NCBI GenBank assembly: GCA_951406725.2
Contig: OX597832.1
Location: forward strand, 18,166,001-18,230,000
Direction: 5' to 3'
Origin: Octopus vulgaris
Taxonomy: Eukaryota
Length of the DNA: 64,000 nt
Shown: piece by piece, positions 1 to 63,439 of the stretch
How positions within the stretch are numbered: the stretch's first letter is position 1
How the letters are laid out: every line of letters starts with the position of its first letter
Program-made: the position numbers and the translations under genes
The notes under the pieces: generated by a model
What the model was told of the DNA's origin: nothing
Databases searched by the model: none
The model's input: the letters and a program-made list of their open reading frames with translations, nothing else

Positions 1-103
1 TTCCTTTCTATCGAAGAGCGTAGGCTCGAAACATAAAAGTATTTCTCACCTCCCGAGTGTTAGACTAATACATCTGCTTGTTGTTTACACATTCGTCTTC
101 GTC
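1..103 (+). mobile_element. Short Penelope-like/retrozyme-like element, family C, with degenerate minimal hammerhead; truncated by window start
   Basis: CTTT-CTATCGA-A-GAGC-GTAG-GCTC-GAAA-CATA-AAAG at 4-39; downstream sequence matches copies at 13270-13462 (-) and 16960-17168 (+). Confidence 0.6.
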
Positions 104-2985: not shown

Positions 2986-3300
2986 AATGGTAAGACAACA
3001 CAGGAATGAAAGAGATCTCGATATTATGTAAATAGTGGATCTTATTTGTAAAATAGTATGCGACAATAATTCTGTTGACATGATAAAACTCCGAACTTCG
3101 TATGTCGGAGCGGAAATCCGCACCAGCATCTCTTCAGTCATCGAGGCAATTAAAATATGCCAAACGATCTGTAAGTTTCTAAATAGATAGCATATATTAA
3201 TTGCCTCGATGATTCAATAGATGTCGGTGCAAGTTTCCGCCTCGACACCCAAAACTCAGAGTTTTATCATGGCAACCGAATAATTGCCACATATTATATT

Positions 3301-5339: not shown

Positions 5340-7061
5340 TTTCTAATATTGGCACAAGACCAGAAGTTTAGAGGGGGCAATTCGATTATAGTGCCTCTAG
5401 TTCTTAACTGGTATATTCATTTACGCGACCACGAAGAAATGGAAAACCGAGTTGACTTCAGCGGGATTATAACATCAGAAACCCCACAAGAAATACCTAT
5501 TTCTTTATTACCCACAAGGGGCTAAAGACAGAGGGGACAAACAAGGACAGACATAGGTATTAAGTCGATTACATCGACCCCAGTGCGTAACTGGTACTTA
5601 ATTTATCGACCCCGAAAGGATGAAAGGCAAAATCGACCTCGGCGGAATTTGAACTCAGAACGTAACGACAGACGAAATACGGCTACGCATTTCGCCCGGC
5701 GTGCTAACGTTTCTGCCAGCGCGCCGCCTAAGAAACCCCACAAGAAATGCCGTTATATTTATCTGAGGTTCTGCAATCGCGCCGCATTAACATTAATAAA
5801 GATTTCTAGGTGGTGGCAAGTCGATTATTTCGATCCTAGTCTTCATTGATACTTATTCTCTGCAGAATTTGAACTTGCAACGAAATGAACTGGAATAAAT
5901 GACTCTAAGAGTTTTCTCAGATGAGTTTCTGACGCCAACACCTTGATGTTTTATCGGGACATTTATTTTCTTTGGCACAAGGAGTAAAGTTTGGGGATTG
6001 GCACCTAGTTGATTGCATTGACCTCAGTGCTAAGCGGGTACTTTGGAGGTCAAACAAGCAGAAATGGTAAAAGACCCCGAAATGGTAAAAGATAGAGTGG
6101 ACTTCGGAATTTGAAATTCGGTTGTAAAGCTTATTCTATCAGCTTTCCTCCTTAATAATAACAACTAAAATAACAAAAAAACAAAGACAATAATAATTAT
6201 TTCTACGATAACTGAAGGGGAAGGGTGCACGCCGATTGCAGGGGGAAACAAGTCGATTACATCGACCCAAGTACGTAGCTGGTATTTATTTCACCGAAAG
6301 GAGGAAAGATCGTACAATTATTCTGTAAGCTGTCCGCATTAGTGATTACAACAACAGCATCGATAACAACAACAATAATAATAAGTTCTACTATAGGCAC
6401 AAGGCCTGAAGGTTTTTGGGGAAAGGACTAGTCTATTACATCAAATCCAGTACATAGCTGATACTTAATTTATCGATCCGGAAAGGATGAAAGGCAAAGG
6501 CGATATAGTCGAAATTTGAACTCAGAACAGCAACAGTCGAGATACCGTTAAGCACATCCACCAGAGTGCTAAAGATTCTGCCAGCTTGAAGCCTTCTGCA
6601 ATAATAATAATAATGGTTCCAAATTTTTCCTCAAGCACAGTAATTTATGGGGAGGGGATGAATCGATTAAATCGATTCCAGGGTTAAACTGGTGCTTATT
6701 TTAGCAACTCCAAAAGGATAAACGGCAACGTCGACCTCGGAGGAATTTCAGCTCAGAACGGAGCTACAAGTGAAATACCGTTAAACCTTTAGCCCGGCGT
6801 ATTAACGATTTTGCCAGCTCACTGCCATGCATAATAACTATTGTAAGCTTTCCTACTAAAAGCGCAAGAGCTGAAATTTTGGGAGAGGGGACTAGTCGAT
6901 TTCATCTACACCACTGTTTCTCTGGTATTTAATTTGTAGTTACCGAAAAGATGAAAGGCGAAGATAACGTCGGTGGAATTTGAACTCAGATCGAAGCGAT
7001 GGGCGAAATACCGTTAAATATTTCAACCAGCGCGCTAACGATTGTGCCAGCTCCCCGCCTT
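5340..7061 (-). mobile_element. Same-orientation array of about 8 family 2 SINE copies of mixed age, separated by (AAT)n
   Basis: Recurring GGCACAAGG...GTCGATTACATCGACCC...CTGGTACTTA...GAAAGG...GGAATTTGAACTCAGA blocks near 5350, 5500, 5815, 5975, 6250, 6390, 6620 and 6855. Confidence 0.8.
5498..5728 (-). mobile_element. Young full-length family 2 SINE nested in an older copy
   Basis: Near-consensus sequence; 21-bp TSD AGAAACCCCACAAGAAAT(A/G)CC at 5477-5497 and 5731-5751. Confidence 0.9.
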
Positions 7062-8497: not shown

Positions 8498-9047
8498 GGA
8501 TCTTTACCTTTTGACGTACAAATTTAAAAAATAATTTTTTGTAACTAAACACATTCAAACGTCGGACACTGATAGAATGTGTCATATAAAATATGCTTTA
8601 CTCTTACCATTTTTTGAGAAAGACTTATAATTACGAAGTAATTTCACGTTAAAGTAACTTATGACAACCCTAACCCTAATCCTGAAACCCTAACCCTACC
8701 CATAAAACCGTAACCATAAAACCCTAACCTTAAAACCCTAAGCTAAAACCAGTAAAAACGCATGAGCGATGTCATAAATAACAGTGACAAACGAAAAATA
8801 CACCGCCGATAGTTATTGTTGACAAACAACGGCAGAAATTTTATTCAGCTGAATACACGTCATTGATTGGTTGAAATTACCGAAATAGGCATACTTTAAC
8901 GTGAAATTACTTCGTAAATATGTTTTTCTCAAAAACGCTAAGAGTAAAATATGTTTCATATGACACATTCTACCAGCGTCCGAAATTTGAAAGTGTTTAG
9001 TTACAAAAAATTATTTTTTAAATCTGTACGTCAAAAGGTAAATATCC
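8498..9047. mobile_element. MITE with about 155-bp terminal inverted repeats and a CCCTAA-rich interior
   Basis: Left GGATCTTTACCTTTTGACGTACA... (8498-8656) is the reverse complement of 8893-9047 (...TGTACGTCAAAAGGTAAATATCC); TSD unclear, so superfamily not assigned. Confidence 0.9.
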
Positions 9048-11614: not shown

Positions 11615-12409
11615 CTATGTCCATCATCATCATCATCTTCACCACTGGCAGCAGCTGCTGCAGCTGAAATTTTTCCATCAGTAGCCACACGATATTCATT
11701 CCCATCACGGCGTATATCTGTATATCATATTTGCTAGTGTGAAGCAGTTTTTCCCCATTGCGTAAATTTCGTTTTCCGCTCGAGGTCTCTACATTTTCAA
11801 AATCTTTGAATCTCATTTGAGAATAGTACGCAGAGCTGTGCAAGGATTTTCGCAATGTACCGCATATATGTTGCATAAATGTCAGTCAATTATTTCGCTC
11901 ATTTAAATGCTGATACATTCGGCAATGTTTATTCCAAGTCATATTCATAATGTTTACCTTCCAAACACAGGCTTTTCAGAAAATTTTGAGTATCGCTTTA
12001 CAATATGAATAAAGAATATATGAATATAGATGTTTTGCCTCCTTTCTTTGTACGTTCACTCAGTGACACCTGTATAGGACTTATGTACCGTATCTTTTAT
12101 TTATTATCCTTTAATTCTTAACTCATGGGACAGTGGCCAAGCTAGGGCACCATCTAAAAGAAATTTTCTGTCGCACACACCAAGCACAGTAATTAATATT
12201 TTACAGACTGTTACTTATTCTAACTGTATCGTTCACAAGCTGGTATATTACAAGGACGTAAAGAATCGAGTAACGGCTGTCATGCAGAGGAGAGGCGAAA
12301 TAGCTAATCAAGAAATCAAGAAATGTCTTTTTAAGAAACACTCATTATTACAATGGACTCCGTGTGGGCAGTCATCTAAAAGTTTTTGTTCGTCATGATG
12401 CTGACATAA

Positions 12410-12698
12410 GTTCCTTGTCTTTCCTGATGAGAAGACGGCATAATGCACCCTTTATTCCTTCGGAATTAAGAATAAGCAGTCTTCGAAACATGTGTCGAGA
12501 ATAAAGGAATTTTGTTAAATCGTCGTTCGACTCCATTCTTTCATTTATCTATAGTAAAAAAACACAAATTTCCACACGAAAGCACGTGATTTCTGCCTTT
12601 GGCATGTAGCTTTAACCGTGCTTTCTGACGTAAATTGCTGCTACCCGGGTATCGGTTAACCGAATTATCCATACTAGGATAATTCATTCAACTACTTA

Positions 12699-12700
<2 letters not shown>
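12410..12700 (+). mobile_element. Penelope-like terminal fragment, family E
   Basis: Hammerhead followed by ACTCCATT and GCTACCCGGGTA blocks also present on the minus strand at 17255-17530; ends in (TA)n. Confidence 0.65.
12413..12507 (+). ncRNA. Type I hammerhead ribozyme motif, intact core
   Basis: CTGATGA 12424-12430, stem II GAAGAC/GTCTTC (6 bp), GAAA 12485-12488, stem III AC-ATGT-GT, GTC triplet ending at 12496, stem I TTTC/GAGA plus distal CCTT/AAGG. Confidence 0.8.
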
Positions 12701-12758
<58 letters not shown>

Positions 12759-12789
12759 GTATGTATGTATGTGTATATGTATATGTATA

Positions 12790-12823
<34 letters not shown>

Positions 12824-13167
12824 CATAATACATATATATGTGTGTGGGCGTTATTTATATATATGTATGTATGTATATGTTTAATCGTTTCTCAATTGTA
12901 AGTAATACTATAATATATTCTTATACACTAATACGTTTGAGGTTTTGTTTTACCATACTATTAAAACAGAAATACTTACTTAAAGAGATAGATTCTGCGC
13001 ACGAATAACGTCTCTAAGTTTTACAGTGCACAAACGCATAGAGTCCGTTCATCGTCTTATAATGACGTGAAACTTCAGGTGAGATAGCTATTTCATTATT
13101 ATGCTTTCTTTTAGACCTGCACATTAGCACATTAACTCAGAAATAGATGCACACATGCACGCGTGTG

Positions 13168-17168: not shown

Positions 17169-17237
<69 letters not shown>

Positions 17238-17254
17238 GTATGTGTGATTTTCAA

Positions 17255-17880
17255 TGTTACAAATAACACGGAAAAAAATTAATAGTTACCAGGGTAGCAA
17301 AAATTCAAGCAAGTACCAACGGTATAACAACCTACTTATAAAGATAGAAAGTGTAGGTTTATGTGAAATGTTTTTGAATAACATAAATAAATAATAAATG
17401 GAGTTAAAAGCAGGTGTTATTCAAATCTTCTTACTTCCGATATATGTTTCGAAGAAAACATTGGTATTATTCCAGAAGGAATTAAAATGGTCTAAAACAA
17501 TGCAATCTTCTCATCAGGGGAAGAAAGAAACCAAACACATCAATAAAACATATGTATATGATAAAGAGAACGCTAGAAAGTTGTTTCTTTTTCTTTTTTA
17601 ATCCGTTAGTAGATATAAGGTCAAAGGTTGTTTATAGGAAGAGAAATAGGAGAAAGAAAGAAATTGGACAAAGATGGTGCCTTCTGGAATTTTTTCGCCG
17701 GATCCAGTATTCACAATCATGCGGAGGCAAGCTCTAAATTTTCAAGAATTACATCCCCTTACGACGTTTAGCCCGGCAGTCGCAGCTGCTTATTAGGTTA
17801 TGGGTGGTGTTGCTTGCAAACAGATATTTGGAGCCGCAACTGAAAGTAGAGTGCCACCAAAGTGGATGAACAGAGTCAGA
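17255..17880 (-). mobile_element. Penelope-like 3' fragment, family E
   Basis: Hammerhead at 17428-17529 and downstream homology to 12410-12700; the upstream part may be decayed endonuclease C-terminus (weak); boundary approximate. Confidence 0.6.
17428..17529 (-). ncRNA. Type I hammerhead motif, near-canonical
   Basis: TTCTTTCTTCCC-CTGATGA-GAAGA..CATTG...CAATG..TCTTC-GAAACATATATC-GGAAGTAAGAA; stem I CTTCC/GGAAG and TTCTT/AAGAA; triplet ATC. Confidence 0.72.
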
Positions 17881-17984: not shown

Positions 17985-18822
17985 CTTTCTACTGGATACA
18001 CAAGGCGTCAAATTTGGGGCAAGGGTTAAGTCGATTACATCGACCCCAGTGCATGACTGGTACTTAATTTTGACGACCCGAAAGGATGACAGGCAAAGTC
18101 GACCTCGGCAGAATTTGAACTCAGAATATAAAGAAAGACGAAATACTGCTAAGCATTTCGTCCAGCATGTTAACGATAATGCCAGCTCGCCGCCTTGACA
18201 CGCACCAACAATCTTTTCTAATTTAGGCACACCGCCCGAAAATTCTGGGGAGGACGCCAATCAAACACTTCGACCCATTACATAACTCGTACTTAATTTA
18301 TAGATCATGAAATGAGGAAAGGCAATGTCAACCTATGCGGAATTTGAACTCAATGTAAGATAGACGAAATAACGATATGCATTTCGATTCTGCCAGCCCG
18401 CCGCTTTGACATCTACCAATAATCTCTTCTACTCTAGACTTAAGGCCCGAAATCTTTTTGGAGGGGTCCAGTTGAATAGATCGACCCCAGGACGCAGCTG
18501 GTACTTAAGTTATCGAACCCGAAATGATGAAAGGCAAAGTCGACCTCGGCGGAATTTTATCTCAGAAGGAAATGTCAGACGAAATACCTATTTCTTTTAT
18601 TACCCACAAGGGGCTAAAAACAGAAGGGACAAACAAGGCTAGACAAACGGATTAAGTCGATTATATCAACCCCAGTGCGTAACTGGTACTTATTTAATCG
18701 ACCCCGAGAGTATGAAAGGCAAAGTCGACCTCGGCGGAATTTGAACTCAAAACGTAGTAGCAGGCGAAATACCGCTAAGCATTTCGCCAAGCGTGCTAAT
18801 GATTCTGCCAGCTTGCAGCCTC
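17985..18822 (-). mobile_element. Cluster of four family 2 SINE units in the same orientation
   Basis: Units at about 17985-18194, 18215-18404, 18426-18588 and 18589-18820. Confidence 0.88.
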
Positions 18823-24824: not shown

Positions 24825-25309
24825 ACATTTTTGTAAGTCTATTCTTCGGTCGGTTTATATTATTTTTATTATTACTCGAAGGGTTGTTATATAACCTTTT
24901 GTATCTACTGTATCTATACAGTATACATACATCGGGCTTCTTTCACTTTGTCTTGTACGAAATTTATTCACAGGTTTGGTCATAACTCTGTTATATATGA
25001 GTACACTATACCATGGTGCATGCAGGGTGGGAAACAAACATCTGACTAAAAGTGTATTTAGGAGTAGAATAAGTGTGGAACAGATGTAGGGAATGCAAAT
25101 ATGACCTAGAAAACGGAAGCCAGTCCCATGTGCTTCTAGTACGTCGAAAGAGTGATTGATCAGGTTCTAATGTTTAACTGGGAGATGGAAAAAGTTTCAC
25201 ATCGAAAAATAAGAAAGCTCCAATGCGGCCTGTCTTTTTCATCGATTCGCTTCAAATAAATCCCGTTCAATAGCATTTTCCTCTACTGTTGAGTCCATTG
25301 TAGTATATC

Positions 25310-25801
25310 AGCGTGCTACAAGAAGCAAAAATGACCAGCATCGAAGCCTATGTCATCAAAGGCCAACTAAGATGTAGCGGCCACGTGGTTAGAATGACTG
25401 ACGAACGACTTCCCAAACAGATCTTCTACTCCCAACTCAAAGACGGCAAGCGTATAAAAGGAGGCCAGAAGAAACGCTACAAGGACTCCCTGAAATCGAA
25501 CCTCAAAAAGTGTGACATTGACTTCACCAACTGGGAGGAAACGGCAAAAAACAGACCACTCCGGAAAACCACCATCCATGAGGGAACGGCGAATTTCGAG
25601 TCGAAAAGGTCTGCAGAGCTGGAGGAGAAAAGACGACGACGGAAGGAGCACCAACAACAATCACGTGCGAGTCTCCCTTCCGGCACTAGATGTCCGCACT
25701 GTGACCGATCTTTTCGAGCAAGAATTGGTCTTATCAGCCACCTGCGGACTCACCAATAAATTTGCGCGAAGACCATCATCCTCGACCTTGAGGGATTGCC
25801 A

Positions 25802-26957: not shown

Positions 26958-27354
26958 GAAAAACCTCTCATTTGCCCTGGAAACAAGATACAAAGTAGTT
27001 TCGGCACATTTAAAAGAAAAGACAACTAACCCCCTTGTTGTTCCCTCTGGCGACGCCGGGGATGTAGGGACTATGACGTAAATGATAGACAAAATATTAG
27101 TTGAAGGACAATTTATTATGTGAGGAAGGGAAATTTACGGAGAGAATAAAATTATACAGAAAACGTGTGTGCACATACATACATACTTACACACATATGC
27201 GCATTGAGAGTTGCCGAAGAGATACGAATCATTGTGTAGGTCACATGACAGTTGTGACGCCTTCCAAGTTGCCCATAATGTGTAGGGTGATAATGATGGT
27301 ACCACTTCACGAAAGTTAACACCTGTGTGCGTAGCGCGAATATGACAGCCAGAA

Positions 27355-27870
27355 AATTTAGCACGCCGGGCGAAATGCTTAGCGGTATTTCGTCTGCCGC
27401 AACGTTCAGAGTTCAAATTCCGCCGAGGTCGACTTTGCCGTTCATCCTCTCGGGGGCGATTAAATAAGTACCAGTTACACACTGGGGCGTTATAATCGCC
27501 TTAATCCGTTTGTCTATCCTTGCTTGTCCCCTCTATGTTTAGCCCCTTGGTGGGTAGCAAAGAAATAGGTATTTCGTCTGCCTCTACGTTCTGAGTTCAA
27601 ATTCCGCCAAGGTCGACTTTGCCTTTCCTCCTTTCCGGGACGATTAAATAAGTACCAGTTACGCACTGGGGTCGATATAATCGACTTAATCCGTTTGTCT
27701 TTCCTTATTTGTCCTCTCCGTGTTTAGCCACTTGTGGGTAGTAAAGAAATGGGTATTTCAGCTGTCTTTACGTTCTGAGTTCAAATTCCGCCAAGGTCGA
27801 CTTTGCTGTTCATTCTTTCAGTGTGGATAAAGTAAGCACCAGTTGCGTACTGGGGATGATCTAATCGAAT
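27355..27870 (+). mobile_element. Family 2 SINE trimer
   Basis: Three units joined at AAAGAAAT(A/G)G|GTATTTC near 27568 and 27752. Confidence 0.9.
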
Positions 27871-40644: not shown

Positions 40645-40653
40645 ACCTATATC

Positions 40654-41066
40654 TATTTCTTTACTACCCACAAGGGGCTAAACACAGAGAGGACAAACAA
40701 GGACGGACAAAGGGATTAAGTCGATTACATCGACCCCTGAGCGTTACTGGTACTTATTTAATCGACCCCGGAAGGGTGAAAGGCAAAGTCGACCTCGGCG
40801 GAATTTGAACTCCGAACGTAGCGGCAGATGAAATACCTATTTCTTTATTACCCATAAGGGGCTAAACACAGAGGGAACAAACAAGGACAGACATAGGTAT
40901 TAAGTCGATTACATCGACCCCTGTGCGTAACTGGTACTTATACAATCGACCCCCGAAGGATGAAAGGCAAAGTCGACCTCGGCGGAATTTGAACTCCTAA
41001 CGTAGCGGCAGACGAAATACCGCTAAGCATTTCGCCCGATGTGCAAACGATTCTGCCAGCTCGCCT
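40654..41066 (-). mobile_element. Family 2 SINE dimer inside a single TSD
   Basis: Junction GAAATACC|TATTTC at 40830-40843; direct repeat CGCCTCCACCTATATC at 40638-40653 and 41062-41077. Confidence 0.9.
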
Positions 41067-41544
41067 CCACCTATATCGTAAACGTATATGATTATTCACT
41101 GTTTTTACTTTTTGCTATCAAACAAGGCAGCAGTGTAGAAAAAAATCTTATACATGAGACCCGTTGTTTTCCGTGTTTTGTCCCACCAGGTGTATAGATT
41201 CTATTCGTGCTTAATCGTCACCGTAAAAATTTAATCGCAGCATATGAGACAGCTAAATCTCATATATAAATATATTAACGTACCTTAATCTGGCCCTTGA
41301 CCGTTAAACGAGTCTAAAGAAACCAGGATTTCTTAGCTAGCTTTATAATCAGCTTAGCAGAAGTAGCAAATATTTTAGAGGATAACCTGTACGTTCATGG
41401 CAATTTAAAATTCATAGGAGCACTGGAAAGAAGACGTTGATTTATTAGCCATGAGTTCTAATCATTCTGAGGCCCACTTTTGTTTTGAACTTTTGAGGGT
41501 TTATGAATGACAAGGAAAAAATTTAGCAATCTTGGTGTACGACC

Positions 41545-42561: not shown

Positions 42562-42771
42562 AAAACGGTAAGACAACAAAAGAAAGAAAGAGACCTCAAT
42601 ATTATGTAAATAGAGGAAATTTATCTATACAATATGTTACATTACTCGGTAGTCAAGATAAAACTCTGAGTTTCAGATGCCGAAGTGAAATCCACAAATA
42701 ACCGAAGAGATGGTGTTGTGGATTTCCACTTCGGCATCTGAAACTCAGAGTTTTATCTTGACTACCGAGTA

Positions 42772-42835
<64 letters not shown>

Positions 42836-61790: not shown

Positions 61791-63106
61791 TTATCAACAG
61801 TTCTCATGTATATGTAAGTGGCTCACTATCTCTATCTCTCTCCCTCTCTCTCTCTCTCCCTCTCTCTCCCCCTCTCTCTCTCCCACACACACTTCCATTT
61901 CATATACACGTTCATTCATCTTTCACTGTTTCCTCACTTTCACTTTAAAACCAAAGTAAATAAATACAATTTTTTTTACGGAACTTGACAAACAAATCCA
62001 GCTGATTTGGATGATTATTCAAAAATTACAGTTCTGAGACTCGAAGTGAAAAATCGCCCTAAGAGTATACCATTGCAAACATTTTTTCGATTGCATTCAA
62101 CGAATTTCAGCTCCAAAGATTTGGCTGCTACTTCGAGCGCGCCCTGTTACCACGTAACAGCTATTTGCGATAAAGCACGCATACATATATTATTTTTAGC
62201 ATTTGTATTTTATTCTGAAATTTTCTCGCATAATTCTTATACAATATTGCATCTATACACACATATAAAACGCACTCTTGCAGGAACACGCTGATATCCA
62301 CTCTCACACACAGAACTATTTAAATATGATCACTTATAGATACATACAAGCACATGCAAGCCCATAACACACAGACACATACACATACACACACACAAAA
62401 CCTATTACTCAAGAATATACAAATCCTCGTGATGATACGTATACGCTGTTGTTATCATTAATAAATTGATATTAGATATATTTTTTATATTCTAAAAATA
62501 TTACACATACGACCTAAGAACAGGAGACAAAAAGAAAACAAAGGCAAGATAAGTATTGATTTATTACATTGAATACAAAACCAGATTGACAAACCGATCG
62601 ATATTATCGAACTTGTTATATTGGGTTCGGCGTTAATCCAATTGGCTTGGTTTAGATTTTATTTATTTATTTATTTATTTATCTTTTGCTTTTGTTCCAT
62701 TATGTTATTGTGGAGACGTCGTTCGTTGAGTGAGTGAAAGATGCTTTTGTTACAAGAATGGATGTTGGTGTTTGTAGTGTGAGTGTAATACAGCCGTGGG
62801 GAATACTTGCCGGTGTCGAACGATACTTGAGGTGGTAGTCTGGAATAGCTAGACTGAATATGTGATGCATTTTCAGGAAATAAATCGACTGGGTGAATGG
62901 ATTTTTTTTTCTGTTGGTGTATATCAATGGCGGGCATTTTGTTTTATGCTGAGGTCCGCCCTTTGCTTGCACATTTGCGGTGAAATGCAATCCTGCAAAG
63001 ACAATCGTTCCTTTTTCGTTATAACAGGAATTATTATCCTTAAATATGAGTCTGAGTAACATATTAAAGGAAGCAGGAGTTTATGCATGAAGTTTAAGGA
63101 GTTTAA

Positions 63107-63326
63107 GGCGGCGAGCTGGCAGAAATGTTAGCGAAATGCTTAGCGGTATTTCGTCTGCGTTACGTTGTGAGTTCAAATTCCGCCGAGGTCGACTTTGCCT
63201 TTCATCCTTTCGGAGTCGATAAATTAAGTACCAGTTACGCACTGGGGTCGATGTAATCGACTTAAAACCTATGTCTGTCCTTGTTTGTCCCCTCTGTGTT
63301 TAGCCCCTTGTGGGTAATAAAGAAAT
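63107..63326 (+). mobile_element. Young full-length family 2 SINE
   Basis: GGCGGCGAGCTGGCAGAA head; 18-bp TSD AGGAGTTTATGCATGAAG at 63075-63092 and 63327-63344. Confidence 0.92.
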
Positions 63327-63439
63327 AGGAGTTTATGCATGAAGAAATATATGAGTGTGTCTGTTTGTGTGTAATTAAGTGATTAATGCGAGCGAACTTT
63401 TGTTTTGAAATTCTGAAGATGGATATTAATAAGGGATGA

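Follow-up and report, generated by a model that had tools for sequence, protein, structure and literature searches.

A hammerhead-like motif at positions 12408-12512 of the 64-kb stretch of Octopus vulgaris DNA analysed here (the window) raises the questions of whether it is a genuine ribozyme motif, which kind of element carries it and whether this particular copy is likely to cleave. The reading that we prefer, with a probability of about 0.7, is that the motif is the hammerhead of a very high-copy repeat which probably represents the terminus (pseudo-LTR/3' part) of a Penelope-like retroelement (PLE), that the present copy is likely a decayed and inactive passenger, and that the long arm mainly stabilises stem II.

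Hammerhead core and extended stem II

The 12408-12512 motif is a real type I hammerhead ribozyme motif with an intact core, in which stems I, II and III (4 + 9, 6 and 2 bp) surround the core and the ends lie in stem I (Table 1). A sequence-only reading had described it as a canonical hammerhead, and every letter and coordinate which that reading named was confirmed, including the 6-bp stem II and the GTC triplet, as was the interruption of stem I, where 4 bp are followed by a 3 x 3 internal loop and 9 bp (12408-12416/12504-12512). Its rank as the most canonical-looking hammerhead in the window also stood, and it gave the only full match to the type I descriptor on both strands of the 64 kb. 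By chance, full matches arose in 0/300 and 1/300 block-wise dinucleotide shuffles of the 64-kb window at two settings (300 shuffles per setting). No Rfam family reached its gathering score anywhere in the window, no hammerhead-family match was returned up to E 10 in 12300-12650, and the best 150 of 300 window matches in the E-value listing were solely microsatellite-driven miRNA matches; the Rfam miss of the hammerhead is probably due to its long insert. The stem III region (12488-12495) is a self-complementary 8-mer in which 8/8 intermolecular pairs could form, two of them G.U, and a variant at 12492 turns stem III and its loop into a perfect 8-nt palindrome.

Table 1. Coordinates of the hammerhead motif, the repeat that carries it and its relative in the window.
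Feature	Position	Strand	Remarks
Core CUGAUGA (C3-A9); CTGATGA in DNA	12424-12430	+	sequence
Stem I 5' strand	12408-12423	+	distal 12408-12416, loop 12417-12419, proximal 12420-12423; pair table
Stem I 3' strand	12497-12512	+	AATAAA inside at 12500-12505
Extended stem II	12431-12484	+	four paired segments P2a, P2b, P2c, P2d
P2a, 6 bp	12431-36/12479-84	+	then G.A
P2b, 5 bp	12438-42/12473-77	+	A.A mismatch in 12408-12512 copy; internal loop beyond
P2c, 3 bp	12450-52/12468-70	+	then U.U
P2d, 5 bp	12454-58/12462-66	+	within inner hairpin
Core GAAA	12485-12488	+	sequence
Stem III, 2 bp	12488-12489/12494-12495	+	closes 4-nt loop
Cleavage triplet GUC	ends 12496	+	predicted cut after C12496 (C17)
Repeat copy with ribozyme, ~375 bp	12328-12702	+	depth step; probably 5'-truncated
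3' tail	12639-12685	+	13-nt motif common to relative, then 9-bp hairpin (12662-70/12677-85)
(TA)n microsatellite	12703-12839	.	3' end of repeat, 207 nt past cut site
Second family member	17235-17535	-	core 17517-17511; 60-nt stem II region; tail ends in (TA)n

The stem II region spans 54-60 nt in the two copies of the window, as against loops of 3-10 nt in the published descriptor. Family variation was available as unphased depth ratios from contigs, with 40 of 105 variants listed, and 10 of these listed variants fall in 12408-12512. On such unphased contig variants, positions 12435/12480 vary as partners in stem II (A-U to G-C) and 12451/12469 do so where the inner hairpin starts (U-A to C-G); a fifth proximal stem I pair is closed by a variant at 12419 and likewise by one at 12501. 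Three partner pairs in which both positions vary among 10 sites have a P of about 0.001 under random placement, the variants being unphased and 40 of the 105 listed. The variant at 12411 disrupts a distal stem I pair, and that at 12472 is unpaired. Position 12475 is T in essentially all depth in 4/4 runs and closes P2b, a middle helix that was defined after the variant data had been seen; in the 17517(-) relative, P2b has 6 bp with partly different letters and a pair probability of 0.6-0.7. With this middle helix, stem II reads as a long interrupted rod, and the unphased covariation hints that in the family it may be modelled as a rod of ~19 bp in four segments rather than as a loop holding a hairpin. 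The earlier description of a loop II with an inner hairpin was thus right about the hairpin, whose basal pairing is supported, but overlooked P2b. Similarly, of the suggestion that an extended stem II provides a tertiary contact, the first half is backed by family variants affecting pairs of stem II and of the inner hairpin base, while the contact itself is unsupported; no conserved partner for the inner hairpin was found, and the sole candidate helix had a pair probability of at most 0.001 as a nested fold. Kissing through a UGCA palindrome at 12444-12447 was considered as well and rejected, since the palindrome is absent from the 17517(-) relative.

A dispersed repeat ending in (TA)n

The ribozyme-bearing repeat is dispersed and present in very high copy, in the thousands. 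Depth was taken from 4 of 24 listed sequencing runs, with 2586 and 2024 matching contigs for organisms A and B, respectively, and runs under four organism labels share at least 0.29 of the words of the stretch. In two DNA runs the summed contig depth, which is not a copy number and is taken only to mean 'thousands', rose from 36-62 to >3x10^4 at the bin 12327-12357 and stayed at ~10^5 or more as far as 12698; ribozyme bins reached 3.3-8.8x10^5 against 39-53 in the left flank (DNA runs, organisms A and B), a ~10^4-fold difference. Loose contig ends lie at 12328, where the repeat copy starts, and RNA-labelled contigs revealed other copies that run ~61 letters further 5' of 12336. Directly left of the element, a depth few-fold above the flank at 12110-12295 suggests a separate low-copy repeat. 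A single-copy contig of organism B matched 11800-12324 with 20 differences and then ran off the match for 66 letters, which hints that the insertion may be absent from the 12324 site in that organism.

Among the nine listed joints between family sequences in contigs, from which tandem joints may be lost, eight were opposite-strand, one was a skip and none was head-to-tail, and the inverted joints 12329/12406 and 12336/12440 both occurred in each of two RNA-guessed runs from different studies. In two RNA-guessed runs family contigs were present with zero cover on the flank, so that they say nothing on the expression of the 12328-12702 locus itself; no run carrying the stretch is on record as RNA. 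Coding constraint on the repeat was rejected, as the 16 listed variants (of the 40 among 105) in 12359-12501 were spread 6/6/4 over the three codon positions. A protein search with one frame overlapping the repeat gave no match (weak evidence), and the frame that opens in the hammerhead core stops after 25 codons, or after 10 codons in the 17517(-) relative.

Comparison of the two copies in the window showed that the ribozyme region (76/112 aligned columns identical) and the 3' tail (117/200) are alike, with alignment scores reached by 0/200 shuffles in each case, whereas their 5' parts are unrelated (119/200 shuffles reach the score). The relative had been said to lie in differing surroundings, which therefore applies to the 5' part only; the 5-bp GAAGA/TCTTC stem II that it was said to keep is present, as is the ATTCC/GGAAT hairpin. 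The common 3' tail identifies both as copies of one mobile family, and as ribozyme and tail are shared, the shared hairpin is partly a matter of plain descent within one repeat family. In the relative, (TA)n begins 205 nt past the cut site, as compared with 207 nt in the 12328-12702 copy; it further carries a C.A mismatch in stem III, an extra C next to the core, 6/8 intermolecular pairs in the stem III 8-mer and a hairpin of unlike sequence at the same place in the 3' tail. By analogy, the 3' hairpin is a candidate site for reverse transcriptase (RT) binding or initiation, with fold z-scores of only -1.9 and -0.3. A two-copy HMM detected no third family member in the 64-kb window, which is AT-rich, microsatellite-dense animal DNA.

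The repeat likely behaves as the end of a PLE, and its membership is putative, as no autonomous partner could be linked to it. The observations behind this reading are the intact core, the high copy number, the (TA)n ends, the inverted joints and the variation at partner sites. The hammerhead has a short palindromic helix III and lies near the terminus, and depth, loose ends and 8/9 joints indicate dispersed high-copy occurrence with 5'-truncated and inverted arrangements. Both window copies (2/2) adjoin a (TA)n/AT-rich target, which counts as weak evidence since (TA)n is common in the window. No RT or GIY-YIG Pfam match was obtained among 150 of the 155 stop-free frames of at least 62 aa in the 64-kb window, nor did the window give any tRNA or PLE protein match, and five ribozyme motifs had no match in the Naiad, Chlamys and Hydra consensus files of Craig 2021 (PMC8557442). 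Counted as support for the PLE reading was a second hammerhead-like repeat family, which forms three head-to-head pairs near (TA)n (520-720, 3060-3290 and 42630-42780); its long stem II contains an inner hairpin, its 4-bp stem III closes a 1-nt loop as in Hydra-clade table entries (PMC8557442), and the core is altered in most copies.

We infer that the element as a whole derives from a PLE, is cleaved with the help of dimer formation or protein and is copied into (TA)n, and that the present copy has decayed. In the RNA of an active element, the ribozyme would fold the long interrupted stem II, and the cut after C17 would be made mainly by two copies paired through the palindromic 8-mer or with the aid of the element's protein, a proposal made because stem III has only 2 bp. 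Cleavage would trim precursor transcripts. Starting near the 3' hairpin, the RT/GIY-YIG protein would copy the RNA into (TA)n targets, and the insertions left behind would be 5'-truncated and arranged head-to-head. As for the long arm, its main role would be to protect stem II from competing pairing with the 5' strand of stem I, for which a tertiary contact by the arm tip would be unnecessary.

Predicted folding and alternative explanations

Folding predictions, which contain neither tertiary terms nor Mg2+, mark the 12408-12512 copy as a poor candidate for activity within its own family and likely as a decayed, inert passenger. In the predicted ensemble of this copy, competing pairing between the 5' strands of stems I and II (12417-23/12431-36) left stem II at 0.31 and proximal stem I at 0.04, and the whole-element fold had the same outcome as the local one. 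The A.A mismatch in P2b stands where essentially all family depth has A-U. Substituting run X1's majority letters raised the predicted stem II and P2b to 0.84-0.98 (stem II 0.98) and proximal stem I to 0.12, or to 0.99 upon addition of the 12501 variant. The inner hairpin was well predicted (0.86-0.98), and monomer stem III stayed at or below 0.04 in every sequence version folded. The previous ranking of this copy as the best candidate for activity could not be upheld, given the mismatch in P2b and the rival fold that dominates the ensemble. The sequence-only reading had also overlooked that a 2-bp stem III with a self-complementary 8-mer is of the dimer type, with poor monomer cleavage (Cervera 2014).

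That ranking implied an active monomer whose inner hairpin docks on the internal loop of stem I and which cleaves at low Mg2+. The intact core, the internal loop in stem I and the well-predicted hairpin retained in the relative speak for it, and some retrozyme hammerheads with a 2-bp stem III cleave as monomers (PMC7229834), but the copy is predicted to misfold, which makes such activity improbable. As to docking, the loop letters are unlike between the copies (UUC, UUCU), the tip of the hairpin lies, by inferred geometry, ~19 bp from the core compared with ~16 stacked positions in stem I, and PLE hammerheads are described as lacking a recognised loop-loop contact and as having low activity (PMC4209133). 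The arm could also act as a switch, the strand 12449-12457 pairing with 12499-12507 as a pseudoknot that replaces distal stem I and gates cleavage. The two strands are perfect 9-bp complements (duplex -8.8 kcal/mol), the 17517(-) relative forms 9/10 pairs (-4.2) when the register is moved by one position, and hammerheads often have pseudoknots linking stems I and II (Perreault 2011, PMC3088659). This pairing would, however, leave neither the inner hairpin nor distal stem I intact, its forced nested fold is less stable (-18.8 vs -23.2 kcal/mol), and it is broken by the variant at 12451, whereas 12451 and 12469 vary as hairpin partners. AU-rich strands also readily pair by chance, and we regard the switch as highly improbable.

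The repeat might instead be a non-LTR retrozyme, in which hammerheads in consecutive units of a tandem array release monomers a few hundred bases long that ligation closes into abundant circular RNAs, with 12328-12702 as a solo monomer. The non-coding, AT-rich unit of ~375 bp would suit this, as mussel retrozymes measure 350-390 bp (PMC7229834), some families frequently occur as solo monomers, an origin of retrozymes from the pLTRs of PLEs has been argued (Li 2026, bioRxiv 10.64898/2026.07.22.740005), and RNA-labelled runs contain family contigs. Yet neither of the two window copies is tandem and 0/9 joints are head-to-tail, although contigs may lose such joints, and both copies reach (TA)n at a fixed distance while other copies continue further 5'; we therefore consider a retrozyme quite unlikely. 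It is also unlikely, in our estimate, that a cephalopod-type family of thousands of copies selectively keeps the ~19-bp multi-segment stem II as a functional gate that makes cleavage conditional, where the RT-endonuclease may dock on the gate, or the gate may act as a switch by forming a pseudoknot with the strand that follows the cut site. Were this true, the gated arm would explain the near-silence of PLE hammerheads in vitro, and the selected arm would be one that published hammerhead descriptors cannot see.

Known hammerheads and other features of the window

On the preferred reading as a PLE end, a close comparison is with the metazoan PLE hammerheads of Cervera 2014 (PMC4209133), which have a long helix II, a short helix I and a palindromic helix III, show low activity, occur as single or opposite-strand copies and were sought with a descriptor allowing 3-10 nt in loop II. 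The octopus motif shares with them the type I arrangement, the long helix II, the short proximal helix I, the palindromic helix III, G10.1-C11.1 and thousands of dispersed single or opposite-strand copies. It differs in its loop II region, which spans 42 nt (about 50 nt in the relative) and contains further helices, compared with 3-10 nt in their descriptor; there is no extra base between A9 and G10.1, and no linked ORF was found. PLEs were further reported to show 5'-truncation, an adjacent inverted copy, a (TA)n bias and 3' hammerheads, octopus families among them (Craig 2021, PMC8557442), and our repeat resembles the Hydra and Naiad clades in its inverted truncated copies and in placing the hammerhead 100-200 nt away from a 3' end that lies in (TA)n. 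The Hydra-1_Obim ribozyme and the 3' ends of Naiad_Obim and Naiad_Ovul, read by eye in that source, are other sequences. Long loops have precedent in the plant elements PLE-X1_sMoe (34 nt) and PLE-X1_sTam (28 nt), and some Naiads have 'half cores' with spacers of 35-50 nt (PMC8557442).

The hammerhead of the anole Poseidon element PAc requires protein, and insertion in vitro proceeds without the hammerhead (Frangieh 2024, PMC11167929); PAc likewise has a hammerhead upstream of a stem-loop near the end of the insertion and AT-rich targets, but its ORF begins in stem II, in contrast to the core frame of the octopus repeat, which soon closes. Like non-LTR retrozymes (PMC7229834; bioRxiv 10.64898/2026.07.22.740005), the repeat is non-coding, measures a few hundred bp and carries a type I hammerhead whose 2-bp stem III is capped by a tetraloop; it differs from them in showing no tandem array or head-to-tail joint (2 copies, 9 joints). 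A 2019 review forms part of the comparison literature on hammerheads (PMC6765202), 190 PLE families make up 6.83% of the O. vulgaris genome (PMC13282606), and 235 hammerhead 1 matches were reported for the giant squid (PMC6962438). The available text of the O. vulgaris repeat paper (PMC13282606) does not use the word 'ribozyme', and its repeat library may already include the repeat. In the literature consulted we found no description of the 12328-12702 family, which repeat libraries, Lunse 2017 or long-loop supplements beyond it may contain.

Hammerheads in PLE repeats are already described and common, and the novelty here is a modest structural variant with a longer stem II. As descriptors with 3-10-nt loops would miss a large long-armed family, animal ribozyme counts are likely too low. 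The thousands of natural variants suit a covariation test and a comparison of cleavage rates between long- and short-armed PLE hammerheads.

Outside the window, the exact family pattern had no match in metagenome or viral contigs. Its single match in prokaryote genomes, on a Deinococcota contig, was rejected as chance, being without stems I and III or other similarity. A relaxed long-loop pattern detected 2 viral and 112 metagenome stretches, and 0/114 combined a stem II of at least 4 bp with a stem I of at least 3 bp. Related motifs from metagenomes, L034 (401-457, minus strand) and L093, have an intact hammerhead core, a 4-bp stem I and a palindromic stem III; they are without a direct stem II and are unrelated to the octopus repeat family.

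Within the window, short GAAGA/GGAGA motifs with a 4-bp stem II and CGAAAC lie in another repeat at 13-32 (+), 13387 (-), 17045 (+) and 52241 (-) and look like decayed minimal hammerheads. Related CTGAAGA...GAA motifs at 2811 (+) and 39926 (+), in a common repeat (2711-2849/39813-39964, 68% identity), possibly represent another decayed hammerhead family. A 151-codon frame at 25304-25756 (+) ends in a C2H2 finger (PF00096, E 1.5e-5) and looks similar to the C-terminal end of RTE-type LINE ORFs. An abundant SINE-like repeat with a period of ~184 bp, which we take to be octopus-type, lies at 1697-1930, 5450-5729, 18462-18821, 27350-27868, 40649-41068 and 63105-63329, in places as partial tandems, and a short degenerate AACCCT-like array at 8666-8750 resembles interstitial telomeric repeats.
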